From sequence record OV754623: 64,000 bases of DNA; one strand, given 5' to 3'. The stretch comes from Escherichia phage UGJNEcP1. The position numbers and the translations under genes were made by a program. Positions 8,607 to 13,542 of this stretch are shown in pieces. Below the pieces are notes generated by a model. That model saw nothing but the letters and a program-made list of their open reading frames with translations, had not been told where the DNA came from and did no database searches. Each line of letters starts with the position of its first letter. The first letter of the stretch is position 1.

Positions 8607-8789
8607 TTATAGTGAATTCACGTAGTCAATGAGTTCTTGTTCTTTCCTGTCAAATGATTCCATCAATGCTTGATATTCTTCATCTGTTAAAGGAGCATAT
8701 TCATCGTACGCATTGGTGGCTGCTTGCTCATCCAATAGGTCATGGATAAGTTCGAACAGTTTAGTTTTCTCTTCTTTAGTCAATTTCAT
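8607..8789 (-). CDS. hypothetical protein (60 aa)
   Basis: Small acidic ORF; ATGA overlap. Confidence 0.45.
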   Translation of the reverse strand: MKLTKEEKTKLFELIHDLLDEQAATNAYDEYAPLTDEEYQALMESFDRKEQELIDYVNSL

Positions 8790-9013
8790 TTAGGTTCACC
8801 TTCTTTAACGAAATCTGGGTAAGGGTAAAATCCTGAGTAAAACCCTTCACCTTTATGATTGCTACAACCTTTGTTCGAACAGTAACACCAATAATCAAAA
8901 TCACAAGCCATTTCGTCATTGCATAAAGCAAAAACTACAGGCCATTCGCATTTTTCGCATTTAGCACCTGTAAGAATTTTTGTTTGACTCATAGCCATGT
9001 CACCTTTAAGCAA
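8786..9013 (-). CDS. Cys-rich small protein (putative zinc-binding)
   Basis: CEKCEW...CNDEMAC...CYCSNKGC pattern. Confidence 0.5.
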   Translation of the reverse strand: MLKGDMAMSQTKILTGAKCEKCEWPVVFALCNDEMACDFDYWCYCSNKGCSNHKGEGFYSGFYPYPDFVKEGEPK

Positions 9014-9216
9014 TATTCTTCTACATGTTGTTTACGGCCTTTCTTATCAATAAAGGTATATTCAACGAATGTTCCGATGTAGTCTTTATCTACGTCATGT
9101 GGACTATTAATTGGACATTTGGTACGACAAATGCGTTCCCATTGACGAATAATTACTGCCTTATTCTTTGGATCATATGGATGTGGATAATGTATATTCA
9201 TAATAACGGTTCCCAA
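8989..9216 (-). CDS. hypothetical protein (75 aa)
   Basis: ORF on coding strand. Confidence 0.45.
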   Translation of the reverse strand: MGTVIMNIHYPHPYDPKNKAVIIRQWERICRTKCPINSPHDVDKDYIGTFVEYTFIDKKGRKQHVEEYCLKVTWL

Positions 9217-9695
9217 TCAACAATCACAATTTCCAGTTTAGTGGAATACGTATCTAAAATCTCTTCGATGACGTCCCAGTTTCCACCACCGATACCTGCA
9301 CCAATTCTTGGCATATAAATTACAGGCTTTGTTATCTTATTCTTTCCGAATTCATTTAATTCTGTTATACAATTCATTAAAGCAGAGTACTCAAAATTAG
9401 GTCCGGGCTCAAACTGCGTATAAAGATTAAAGCAATAAGCTTTATGGGTCTTAAAATATTTTTCATAAACCGAATAAGTCCCGAGTTTAGACTCGTCTCC
9501 GAATTCGGTTTGAAGTTTATCGGCTTCCAGAATTTTTGGATAAGCCTTTGCTAATTGTCCTGCCACACCGGCGCCCATTGTATGAAAACAATTACACCCA
9601 TGAGCAATATTATTACCTTTAGAAAACAGGGCGACAATATCGCCCTTGATATAGTTTTTAATCACTTGCTGCAAGTCCTCTAGTATAAGAGTCAA
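9198..9695 (-). CDS. macro-domain protein (ADP-ribose binding/processing fold)
   Basis: HGCNCFHTMGAGVAGQLAKAYP and IYMPRIGAGIGGGNW resemble the two glycine-rich loops of macro domains. Confidence 0.55.
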   Translation of the reverse strand: MTLILEDLQQVIKNYIKGDIVALFSKGNNIAHGCNCFHTMGAGVAGQLAKAYPKILEADKLQTEFGDESKLGTYSVYEKYFKTHKAYCFNLYTQFEPGPNFEYSALMNCITELNEFGKNKITKPVIYMPRIGAGIGGGNWDVIEEILDTYSTKLEIVIVDWEPLL

Positions 9696-10552: not shown

Positions 10553-11011
10553 CTAGATTTTAATCACTGCTTTAGAAGCTTTTCCTGGTAGTCGTTTATT
10601 GTTAATAATAGCCATTCTGCATTGAAGAGTCTTCATTTTGAATGCTGGATTTTCGCGACAAACTGTAAGTCCTAACCAAAGATTTCCATCAGTTATTTCT
10701 AAACGGCCTGGGCGATATTCGACACCTTCGACAAAATCTTCATCAACATCTGGACGTGCCGGCATTGATAAAAATTCTGCAACTTCTTTAACATGATTTT
10801 TTACTTTATGAAATAATTCAAAAACGTAATTCTCATCTATTTCTCTCTGGATGGCACGATCTAAGAGATGTTGAGAATACTTGATATGAAAGCCTGGTAG
10901 TCCAAGAGACTTTGCAGCATCTTTTATACTGGCATTTATTTTGCGGAACTCCGTTTCAAAGATTCGACGGAGTTTATTACGGCGGATAAAAACGTCTGAA
11001 TTGATAGTCAT
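10553..11011 (-). CDS. regB: RegB site-specific endoribonuclease
   Basis: 152 aa; MTINSDVFIRRNKLRR...GRLEITDGNLWLG...RLPGKASKAVIK matches T4 RegB as recalled. Confidence 0.8.
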   Translation of the reverse strand: MTINSDVFIRRNKLRRIFETEFRKINASIKDAAKSLGLPGFHIKYSQHLLDRAIQREIDENYVFELFHKVKNHVKEVAEFLSMPARPDVDEDFVEGVEYRPGRLEITDGNLWLGLTVCRENPAFKMKTLQCRMAIINNKRLPGKASKAVIKI

Positions 11012-11030
11012 TTTGATTTCTCCTCTAGTT

Positions 11031-11068
11031 GACAGGTCTATAGTAACACAACTAGAGGAGAAGTAAAC
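11031..11068 (-). promoter_or_regulatory. PeSL-type early promoter upstream of regB with SD-complementary spacer
   Basis: ACTAGAGGAG at 11051-11060 is the inverted repeat of the regB ribosome-binding region at 11021-11030. Confidence 0.6.
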
Positions 11069-11367
11069 TACTCTTTGAAAGGAATTAACTTTTTAACTGC
11101 TTTAGATACTTCGTCACGAACCTGGTGGAAGTTCTTGAGCTGTTCAAGGCGTTGTTCGTAATACGCAATCTCATCTTCTTCAAGACAATCGTCAGCGTCT
11201 TCTTTCAGATATGCCTTGTACTCATTAAAGAGGGCCCATAGGCGATTCTCAAAGTCATCAAGGCTTTGAATTTTCTTGTGCTTCGGAACAAGGCCAAAAG
11301 GATTGCTTTCAGTTATGCGTCGAGATGCTTCATAATGAGTTCCAAAGCCTGATAGGATTTGAGCCAT
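11068..11367 (-). CDS. hypothetical protein (~100 aa)
   Basis: ORF; start placed at MAQIL to give ATGA-type junction. Confidence 0.45.
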
Positions 11368-11612
11368 TAGTATTTTTCCTCTGGTTGAAATACCGCACGA
11401 CAAGCCCACATACTAGCTTCCTTTAGGCGTTCTTTAGCACAGTTCAATTGGGACAAAGCCGTCAGAGCTTCAGGAGTATTTGCTGATAATGCTTCTTCTG
11501 CCAGGGCGTCTAGAATAAGTCCTAAACGAACTTCGGCATCTTTAATAGCGTTCACTTTACCGATTTTATCATCGGTATGCGGCTTGTAGCCTTTAATATC
11601 TTCAATCGACAT
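11367..11612 (-). CDS. hypothetical protein (~81 aa)
   Basis: Internal Met start ([10 protein letters not shown]) avoids overlap with upstream ORF. Confidence 0.4.
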
Positions 11613-11826
11613 AAGGAATTTCCTCATCAGTGGCAAGGTCATATTCGACCAATTGGATAGGCTCATTAATACCATATCCACGTACAGTGATATCAGTTGT
11701 CGGATAGTTTCCAGTAATATCACCCATTCTAAATGCTTCAATGAATGATTGCTCGCCTGAGCAACTAAACCAGGCGGCAAAACATTTTAAAACATCTTCA
11801 GACCCTTCTATAATCAATTTAGCCAT
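11602..11826 (-). CDS. hypothetical protein (74 aa)
   Basis: ORF with ATGA overlap to the GrcA-like gene. Confidence 0.45.
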   Translation of the reverse strand: MAKLIIEGSEDVLKCFAAWFSCSGEQSFIEAFRMGDITGNYPTTDITVRGYGINEPIQLVEYDLATDEEIPYVD

Positions 11827-12188
11827 TATAGACTCTCAGTAAAGGTACGAGCGATAACGTCGCGCTGCTGTTCCGGAGTCAGAGAGTTAAAGCGAACTGC
11901 ATAACCGGATACACGGATGGTCAGCTGCGGATATTTTTCTGGATGCTTAACTGCATCTTCCAGAGTTTCGCGACGCAGAACGTTAACGTTCAGGTGTTGA
12001 CCACCTTCAATTTTAACTTTAGGTTGATGTTCAATTTCAATTTCACGGGCATTCAAACCGTAGAAAATTTCCGGGTCTACAATAGCGTCTTCTTTAAAAG
12101 TCTTAGAGACAATAATCCGGGCTTGAGTACCGTCTTCAAAATAAATAGTGCCTTTGTGTTCACCTTCAAGAATTTGATATGCTTTCAT
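11826..12188 (-). CDS. autonomous glycyl-radical cofactor (GrcA/YfiD-like)
   Basis: C-terminal [25 protein letters not shown] glycyl-radical motif; 3' half of the gene is markedly GC-richer than phage background. Confidence 0.8.
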
Positions 12189-12194
12189 ATAACC

Positions 12195-12503
12195 TCAATT
12201 AGAAAATAAATTTATCCAAGATTTTTCTTTAATCAAAAATGGGTCGGAATTAAACGCCATTAAACTTTGAGTGATTAATCCTTTAAATGGCCCATCAATA
12301 AATTCCATTTTGAAATGTGGAATACTAGTCATCAACCGTGCATTAGGAGCAGTACAAAGAACCTGCTGCCCTGCAAACGGTCCTTTAGTCAAACGATAAC
12401 GTTTAGGTTTAAAATGATAAATCTCGTAATTTTCTACAAGAGCCCTTTTATTGCATACTGGGCTGTTATAACAATACTCAAAAACTTCAATAGTGGTCAT
12501 CAT
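12195..12503 (-). CDS. hypothetical protein (~102 aa)
   Basis: ATG overlapping upstream stop (ATGATGA at 12497-12503). Confidence 0.45.
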   Translation of the reverse strand: MMTTIEVFEYCYNSPVCNKRALVENYEIYHFKPKRYRLTKGPFAGQQVLCTAPNARLMTSIPHFKMEFIDGPFKGLITQSLMAFNSDPFLIKEKSWINLFSN

Positions 12504-13039
12504 TGCATTCCAATCACAAAAAATTGAGGACGAGCAATACCACCGATGCAATATTTGCTTTTGCAACAGTGTTGGACTGTTTTAATATGGATGTCGTAAA
12601 TCTTATCCATATCAGGAGCTTTAATAGGCTCGTCAATTATGTACAGAATACGAGAAAGCGTTAATCCACGGAATTTATGTCCTTCATTACCAATAAAACT
12701 ACGGACAGAATCAGTAAATAAACGGAATCTAATATCATCGCTAGAATAACGAGAAAATTCTTTTTTAATGTTGCCAACAGAAATTTTAGCATAAGCTGAA
12801 GTATTAGAAAGAACAATAACTGTTCCACCATCATACAGCCAATTAACAGCAAAATTAGTTACTGCGGTCGATTTACCAGATTGCCTGCCGCCGTCTAAAC
12901 GAAGTGTACAGTACTGCTTGAGTACGTCTTCAAATGGTGGGGCATAACCGTTCTTACAAATTTCTTCTACTCTAGCATCAGAATGGTGTGTAAAAGCATT
13001 CATCAGGGATAGATAAGGTCCGGTTAAAAATGTTCTCAT
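12500..13039 (-). CDS. small P-loop NTPase (Walker A GGRQSGKST, Walker B ILYIIDEP)
   Basis: Motifs read from translation; preceded by an unusual GC-rich ~170-nt leader. Confidence 0.55.
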   Translation of the reverse strand: MRTFLTGPYLSLMNAFTHHSDARVEEICKNGYAPPFEDVLKQYCTLRLDGGRQSGKSTAVTNFAVNWLYDGGTVIVLSNTSAYAKISVGNIKKEFSRYSSDDIRFRLFTDSVRSFIGNEGHKFRGLTLSRILYIIDEPIKAPDMDKIYDIHIKTVQHCCKSKYCIGGIARPQFFVIGMQ

Positions 13040-13212
13040 TTAGTTTCTCTTTTAGGTTGGGCCATTCCGTGGCACATGTTAGGTCCTTCGACTCGCTATG
13101 TAAACCCATTACCGCACTTGGGCTCGACCTTATTACAGGTTGGAAAAGGTACATCACTCAGAGGACTCGACGTTCATGAGGAGAGGTTGCGTTTCCCTTT
13201 ATTAGGCAAGAA

Positions 13213-13542
13213 TTATACTCTAGGCTTTTGAGCTTGTTTGGTATTGGATTCCCATGCAGCTTTGGTAATTTTGTTAGCGGCATAACCAAAGGCACTAGAT
13301 AGAACACCTTTAGAGTTGAATACATCCAATCCAATAAGTACACCGGCTGTGTTAAATTTAGGAGCAAAGTACGCATTAGTTTTAGAAAGAGCTTTTTTCA
13401 ATTCAGGGTCTTGAACCAAACCATCAAAAACGCCTTTACTATTTACTTTATATGTTACTTTGGGATTTTTACCTTCTTCGATAGCAGCTTTCTGTTCCGC
13501 AGATAATGTAACTTCAGTGATAAACTCTTGATACGTTTTCAT
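13213..13542 (-). CDS. internal-protein-like (capsid-targeting leader MKTYQEFITE)
   Basis: N-terminus matches the T4 internal-protein capsid targeting sequence ending in the prohead-protease site I/L-x-E. Confidence 0.7.
   Translation of the reverse strand: MKTYQEFITEVTLSAEQKAAIEEGKNPKVTYKVNSKGVFDGLVQDPELKKALSKTNAYFAPKFNTAGVLIGLDVFNSKGVLSSAFGYAANKITKAAWESNTKQAQKPRV

Follow-up and report, generated by a model that had tools for sequence, protein, structure and literature searches.

A Probable Escherichia grcA Segment Within the GrcA-Like Gene vs.6 of an RB69-Like T-Even Phage

The vs.6 gene of the phage analyzed in this study is very probably a T-even copy of GrcA in which an internal segment of 173 nt has been replaced by Escherichia grcA, through recombination between the phage gene and that of the host. 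Over this segment, referred to here as the patch, the phage is identical to E. coli K-12 grcA at 172 of 173 nt (ungapped alignment anchored at the stop codon), the one mismatch being G to A at gene nt 249, and the host tract is internal, with phage-type sequence flanking it on both sides. Neither the gene nor its annotation or function is new, and as the biochemical role has been on record since 2001, annotating vs.6 contributes nothing further. What is gained is an evolutionary result, in that a strictly lytic phage that degrades the DNA of its host has, inside an old gene of its own, 173 nt of Escherichia DNA nearly free of mutations. The window, by which is meant the whole stretch of 64,000 nt that was analyzed, is from Escherichia phage UGJNEcP1 (sequence record OV754623), and contains the following features.

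11826..12188, minus strand: vs.6, phage homologue of GrcA/YfiD and orthologue of T4 Y06I, 120 aa (from ORF, Pfam, nucleotide identity and gene order)
12009..12188, minus strand: head, gene nt 1–180 (aa 1–60), AT-rich N-terminal region of the phage GrcA lineage (from GC content and hhalign)
11836..12008, minus strand: patch of apparent Escherichia origin, gene nt 181–353 (aa 61 to ∼118), glycyl-radical domain (172/173 nt as in K-12 grcA)
11826..11835, minus strand: last three codons and stop, GAG AGT CTA TAA, phage-type (from alignment)
11901..11915, minus strand: codons for the predicted glycyl-radical fingerprint R92-V-S-G95-Y96 (from alignment to E. coli GrcA, 6owr and 1h16)
12193..12196, minus strand: candidate Shine-Dalgarno-like motif GAGG, 4 nt 5' of the vs.6 ATG (read from the sequence)

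The genome in which vs.6 is found is that of an RB69-like T-even phage. The gene is 100% identical in nucleotides to a gene of Escherichia phage UGJNEcP2 that bears the annotation grcA, and 98.6% to vs.6 of RB69 (Mosigvirus), its megablast matches number 790 phage records, and the encoded protein is 93% identical to T4 Y06I. The order vs.8-vs.7-vs.6-vs.5, on a single strand in the tk to e region, is the same in the window, RB69 and T4, and the window ORFs at 12500..13039, 12195..12566, 11826..12188 and 11602..11826, all on the minus strand, fit the maps of both reference phages. The last of these, vs.5, overlaps vs.6 by 1 nt, such that the final A of the vs.6 TAA is also the A of the vs.5 start codon. 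Mean identity to T4 across the 4.1 kb of this region that were aligned is 76%. Promoter and terminator hits in a scan of 11000–13400 were no more numerous than in shuffled sequence, making the scan uninformative, and a search of the first 8 kb of the window for nrdD and nrdG found neither gene but ORFs of the nrdC.x type.

The vs.6 ORF includes the radical-domain peptide quoted in the original prediction, which held that the 3' half of the gene is GC-rich and host-like. This is borne out by the composition, with nt 181–353 having a GC content of 0.497 (GC3 0.42) compared with 0.35 (GC3 0.25) in nt 1–180 and 0.381 in the window as a whole, where the standard deviation among 173-nt windows is 0.039 and 0.32% of all such windows are as GC-rich as the patch. 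The codon usage of the 3' half was also expected to be host-like, and to a degree it is, since five of the six Leu codons in the tail are CTG, a codon that makes up 10% of Leu codons phage-wide, and the GC3 of the tail is in the top 5% of 60-codon windows. This codon shift is, however, the weaker signal of the two: on the phage's own codon table, the score of the tail is in the bottom 7% of 60-codon windows.

The change in composition is matched by a change in similarity to the host gene. The maximum chi-square breakpoint lies at gene nt 178 (chi2 152), with an identity of 37.6% before it and 97.8% after, and a blastn search hit all 5,426 of 5,426 complete E. coli genomes at grcA, with 90.9% identity over nt 133–363. 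In a related phage contig (L091) the patch is identical to the commonest E. coli patch allele at 173/173 nt, and in MT984581.1, a T4 record other than the reference, it matches the E. coli allele at every one of the 173 positions. The patches of the window and T4 are 97–99% identical, in a region where the mean is 76%. The proposal that vs.6 is chimeric, with a radical domain taken from an enterobacterial grcA, is therefore upheld decisively by the 172/173 nt and the breakpoint at nt 178, which make the gene a mosaic with a host-derived radical domain, and it can be narrowed, as the near-identity at nucleotide level is to Escherichia grcA specifically.

Nucleotide identity of this degree could in principle be reached with no transfer at all, by strong purifying selection on the protein together with convergence on optimal codons. 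The tail protein is indeed extremely conserved, being identical in E. coli, the window phage and phage leN, and grcA is described as highly expressed. As aa 61–120 of vs.6 have 100% identity with E. coli GrcA 68–127, it is the synonymous sites that are the informative part. At positions where phage and E. coli have the same residue, they also have the same codon in 56 of 60 cases in the tail, compared with 7 of 16 in the head (Fisher p = 4e-5), whereas leN, despite its identical tail protein, has only 32 of 60 tail codons in common with E. coli, and the corresponding counts for Salmonella and Citrobacter are 33 of 58 and 46 of 60. The dS of the tail follows the same order, at 0.094 between the window and E. 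coli, 0.40 between E. coli and Citrobacter and 1.1 between E. coli and Salmonella, and three of the four synonymous tail differences between the window and E. coli are in the last three codons. The preference for CTG in the patch is, moreover, contrary to that of the phage. Protein constraint as the cause of the patch identity is refuted by these synonymous-site controls, and an origin without transfer is barely credible.

The donor of the patch was very probably Escherichia grcA, with the transfer postdating the separation of that genus from its relatives, because identity over the last 183 nt of vs.6 falls from 97.8% with E. coli K-12 (96.2% with another Escherichia species) to 90–92% with the next genus (Citrobacter 92%) and <87% with Salmonella. 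The possibility that pflB was the donor was considered and rejected, the pflB tail (L164) being ∼35 of 183 nt away from the E. coli grcA tail by eye count. Transfer in the opposite direction, from phage to E. coli, seems unlikely, since the E. coli tail is normal among enterobacterial grcA genes (92% to Citrobacter) and it is the patch that is a GC outlier within the phage.

Two forms of mosaic need to be distinguished here, as a host radical domain may be newly fused to unrelated phage 5' sequence, or may replace the equivalent segment of a homologue that the phage already possessed. A new fusion would fit the sharp break in composition and identity at nt 178–181, and also the end of BLAST-level nucleotide similarity to E. 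coli at nt 133; in ungapped alignment the head is ∼38% identical to E. coli grcA in nucleotides. At the level of profiles, however, 10 phage heads aligned by hhalign over their full length with 14 bacterial GrcA heads, at a probability of 97.1% (E 6e-11, 60 columns, 27% identity). The same type of head (MKAYQIL.G.H.GTIY...) is followed by very dissimilar tails in JD18, KP15, Miller and leN and is found, more remotely, in T5-like and jumbo phages, so that heads of this type stand before non-E. coli tails in JD18, KP15, leN and the T5-like phages, and the last 10 nt of vs.6 are phage-type as well. A newly made fusion is thus highly improbable. Of the captured-domain chimera envisaged in the original prediction, then, the host-derived radical domain stands and the joining to an unrelated 5' half does not; the 5' half is AT-rich, as had been noted, but it is more than plain phage-like sequence, being a diverged GrcA N-terminus. 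Purifying selection acts on the head, where dN/dS for the window versus T4 is 0.062/0.444. When the E. coli grcA head was compared with 50,697 phage records there was no match, and no host-type full-length grcA was found among them at the DNA level.

At the other end of the patch, the E. coli equivalent of the terminal codons is GAA AGC CTG TAA, which amounts to three synonymous differences from vs.6 in 10 nt. The states GAG AGT CTA are common to vs.6, KP15, L107, leN and L101, KP15 and leN being distant phages, and these RB69-type terminal states are the ancestral phage states. The suggestion that the terminal synonymous changes provide a Shine-Dalgarno sequence for vs.5 was dropped, as T4-group phages have GAA AGT TTG and others at this position.

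With a phage-type head on one side and phage-type last 10 nt on the other, the event was therefore the replacement of a segment within an older phage grcA homologue, in other words a recombinational replacement between diverged homologues and not the fusion of a domain onto an unrelated 5' half. In the mechanism proposed, nt 181–353 of this older phage-lineage gene would have been swapped for Escherichia grcA by recombination with the host gene. The patch edges fall in blocks that are apparently conserved among homologues in alignments read by eye, these being GAAGGTGGTCA, which encodes EGGQH, on the 5' side and ACCTTTAC on the 3' side.

A comparable junction was observed in a different pair of phage sequences. 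The vs.6 genes of Krischvirus phage JSE (L007, 267–683) and IMG/VR contig L119 (692–1108) are 99% identical over nt 1–248 and about 65–70% identical thereafter, the drop occurring directly past the same EGGQH block as the 5' patch edge of the window, and the best bacterial match of either tail is 72–80%. As a second, independent replacement of the tail at the same junction, this pair supports the placing of the patch edges in conserved blocks.

The patch is not restricted to the window phage, with the E. coli patch allele being present at ≥95% identity in 642 phage records of Tequatrovirus and Mosigvirus, and with ≤1 mismatch in 294. Klebsiella Jiaodaviruses form a separate group, at 86–89% to the E. 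coli patch allele, and Tequatroviruses isolated on Hafnia and Salmonella have kept the E. coli-type patch. A comparison of eight Mosigvirus-type with eight Tequatrovirus-type vs.6 sequences gave 11 fixed genus differences in the head and 0 in the patch (Fisher p = 8.5e-4), and a between-genus divergence of 10.7% for the head and, for the patch, 2.3%, which is no different from the diversity inside each genus (1.6–2.3%). At every variable site of the patch most phages have the E. coli base, and each phage has 0–5 derived changes. Judging from these sequences, the patch is much more recent than the separation of Tequatrovirus from Mosigvirus, because it has no genus differentiation though the heads have diverged. 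At least one transfer from host to phage must have happened.

Since then, the patch has either been reset repeatedly by host DNA or been passed from phage to phage via recombination. In the former case concerted evolution would be ongoing, with fragments of host grcA continuing to recombine into the phage gene, lineage by lineage, in a balance of mutation and conversion; the host fragments would convert the phage gene recurrently because the 173 nt are identical. This may well be what occurs, albeit we would stop just short of calling it probable. A patch that lacks genus differentiation and lies beside 11 fixed head differences, with the nearest fixed differences close to it (nt 162, 170, and 360), is what such a process would leave, as is a majority state equal to that of E. 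coli at all polymorphic patch sites, with only 0–5 private or rare changes in each phage. T4 is known to recombine efficiently with short homologous plasmid inserts, and a conversion rate of ∼1e-6 per replication against a mutation rate of ∼2e-8 per bp would lead to a divergence of ∼1%, roughly as observed; on the other hand, T-even phages degrade the host DNA that would have to be the source of the fragments.

The polymorphisms of the patch can be read in both directions. At nt 219, C and T segregate in E. coli and in both phage genera, as would be expected if host alleles continue to enter, with the K-12-type C in ∼1,249 E. coli genomes and T being commoner. This is, however, the sole polymorphism held in common with E. 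coli, and as a synonymous transition it could recur by mutation. The variants T195 and A249, which Mosigviruses share, and likewise T282, were set on E. coli allele backgrounds and searched for in the 5,426 genomes without an exact match, and the Klebsiella, Cronobacter, Citrobacter and T5-like phages that were sampled are without a near-identical host tract, both of which weigh against recurrent conversion. It is put forward tentatively, as a possibility rather than an expectation, that the patch is a standing zone of concerted evolution in which host grcA overwrites the phage copy independently in Tequatrovirus and Mosigvirus. If true, the radical domain of the phage would track the allele of the Escherichia population being infected, despite the destruction of host DNA, and this would make gene conversion from host to phage measurable, at its natural rate, in the T-even group.

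Alternatively, the patch may have been captured a single time, into one T-even lineage, and then spread through homologous recombination when Tequatrovirus and Mosigvirus phages infected the same cell, the host contributing nothing more, an account that comes near to being probable without quite reaching it. Exchange of this kind is in keeping with the presence in Mosigviruses of all four allele combinations at sites 195, 219, and 249 of the patch, with the vs.6 of Escherichia phage Pu-Krd-SF6, where a Mosigvirus-type 5' part is followed by a Tequatrovirus-type 3' part, with a tk.3-like segment of the window that is 96–98% identical to T4 and absent from RB69, and with an identity to T4 of 88–91% in the vs.6 head and the vs.7 3' end, compared with the regional mean of 76%. 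The genus-specific flanks would nevertheless only be retained if crossovers took place within ∼10 nt of each patch edge, and a single capture alone leaves unexplained why the consensus of the patch is an exact extant E. coli allele.

The three places mentioned above can be described further. In Pu-Krd-SF6 (L175, 71–433), vs.6 has Mosigvirus-type states up to ∼nt 61 and Tequatrovirus-type states from ∼nt 136 on, including the terminal codons, and the vs.5 downstream is 222 nt, the length found in the T4 group; the gene is an inter-genus recombinant with its crossover inside vs.6. The segment absent from RB69 covers ∼410 bp of the window (8798–9207), which the RB69 alignment skips across, and its ORFs, both on the minus strand, are at 8786..9013 (Pfam Phage_zn_bind) and 8989..9216 (DUF7202, tk.3-like). 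It is window positions 9001–9225 that are 96–98% identical to T4 tk.3, which suggests a recent exchange between Tequatrovirus and Mosigvirus. Identity to T4 is also asymmetric about the patch, with the 88–91% applying to 12012–12325 and vs.5 on the other side (11607–11831) being 63–74% identical, possibly the trace of an older exchange that involved just one of the two sides.

The tails of other phage lineages were examined in a panel made up of JD18, KP15, Miller, leN, JSE, one T5-like phage and 80 IMG/VR homologues, which was compared with 81 bacterial grcA genes, K. pneumoniae grcA not being among them, and with pflB fragments. With the exception of contig L118, none of these tails exceeded ∼90% identity to any bacterial grcA in the panel. 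Host-specific replacement in these lineages was accordingly rejected for the 81 grcA genes compared (no K. pneumoniae), and the near-identical patch is therefore specific to T-even phages of E. coli; with the tails of JD18, KP15, leN and Miller at ≤90%, replacement from the host is not a general property of the family. The IMG/VR contig L118 has a bacterial-type grcA over its whole length, ∼91% identical to that of Yersinia, and IMG/VR contigs L159–L168 carry the 3' end of pflB. Rather than spare-part genes of phages, these are probably host DNA beside prophages, or misclassified contigs. GrcA-like genes are widespread beyond the T-even phages, including T5-like Demerecviridae, a 357-kb Serratia jumbo phage and others (L008, L114–L115, L132–L158), each with its own head type and with tails 72–84% identical to bacterial genes. 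Some of them bear the annotation 'ribonucleotide reductase subunit' or 'acetyltransferase,' apparently in error.

The vs.6 protein has every structural attribute of GrcA except a score above the NCBIfam equivalog cut-off. Its sole domain is Pfam Gly_radical (aa 59–101, 67.3 bits, E 2e-18), it matches the NMR structure of E. coli GrcA (6owr) at E 2e-42, and aa 57–120 match PflB 696–759 (PDB 1h16) at E 3e-26. The RVSGYAV fingerprint is present as R92-V-S-G95-Y-A-V98, and by homology G95 would be the radical site, as the counterpart of GrcA G102 and PflB G734. The NCBIfam equivalog TIGR04365 (spare_glycyl) aligns with aa 18–120 and scores 159.1 bits, short of the curated 170-bit cut-off on account of the diverged head; the RefSeq name of the RB69 and T4 proteins is GrcA, despite the cut-off being missed by the window protein.

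A T4 homologue was said in the original prediction to act as a spare part for oxygen-damaged pyruvate formate-lyase (PFL), and this agrees with the literature, in which T4 Y06I (vs.6) reconstitutes the oxygen-cleaved enzyme (Wagner et al., 2001, as reported in PMC8683613). According to the same report, YfiD (GrcA) and Y06I are both activated by PFL activase and reactivate oxygen-cleaved PFL, and they are described there as still the only two validated spare-part proteins (PMC8683613). By analogy with the T4 orthologue, host PflA would install the glycyl radical on G95 of the vs.6 protein (PMC8683613), and the protein bearing the radical would dock on PflB that has lost its radical domain after cleavage by oxygen at G734, restoring activity. 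In this way vs.6 would sustain the production of acetyl-CoA and formate by host fermentation after host expression has been shut off, with a presumed benefit to the phage. As it shuts off expression of the host, the phage would, from what is general in T-even biology, supply vs.6 from a transcription unit of its own, and an exact copy of the host radical domain would guarantee recognition by host PflA and PflB.

Among the known proteins close to vs.6, E. coli GrcA (YfiD; 6owr; TIGR04365) is also a small stand-alone protein (∼14 kDa) with the RVSGYAV site and a homologous N-terminal region. The vs.6 protein differs from GrcA in a head that is ∼27% identical and 7 residues shorter, and in being expressed from a phage transcription unit and not from the host promoter. 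The C-terminal glycyl-radical domain of PflB (1h16) is the piece that the vs.6 protein is thought to replace, the two being ∼80% identical in protein sequence over the aligned stretch (own count from the sequences). T4 Y06I and RB69 vs.6 resemble the window gene in their length of 120 aa and their position between vs.7 and vs.5, and T4 vs.6 also has the E. coli-type patch with an identical 5' junction. The window protein differs from the T4 reference by eight amino-acid changes, seven in the head plus R73H, and the window gene has the K-12-type C at nt 219 and the Mosigvirus-specific A at nt 249. At codon 73, the T4 reference (NC_000866; L009, 3558–3920) has CAT (His73) where E. coli and most of the T-even phages sampled have CGT or CGC (Arg), and this His73 may be a laboratory variant or a sequencing difference.

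Being a 173-nt match to the E. coli chromosome (172–173/173 in the closest phages), the patch is something that read-mapping pipelines, host-contamination filters and detectors of prophages or horizontal transfer should expect to encounter. It is also a convenient natural marker for rates of recombination from host to phage and from phage to phage. No earlier description of a host-identical patch in vs.6 was found in a full-text literature search, with a prior mention being possible in Wagner et al. (2001) or the T4 genome review (PMC150520), which were outside its scope; Nolan et al. (2006) note nothing on the gene beyond a Pfam match.

The patch belongs to a known kind, that of intragenic recombination between host and phage in auxiliary genes. 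Characteristics of psbA-type mosaics that are present in vs.6 are a breakpoint, an excess of synonymous identity, a shift in composition and phage-type flanks. Host-phage intragenic recombination has been described for psbA and psbD of cyanophages (Sullivan et al., 2006, PMC1484495), and like them vs.6 is an auxiliary metabolic gene of a T4-like phage that contains a host tract, with a G+C shift and discordant identity within the gene. It differs from them in its enteric host, in encoding a 14-kDa repair protein, in belonging to phages that modify their own DNA and destroy that of the host, and in a tract that is almost unmutated (99.4–100%) and common to two phage genera. The vs.6 patch offers an enteric counterpart, and a clean one, to the psbA mosaics of cyanophages.
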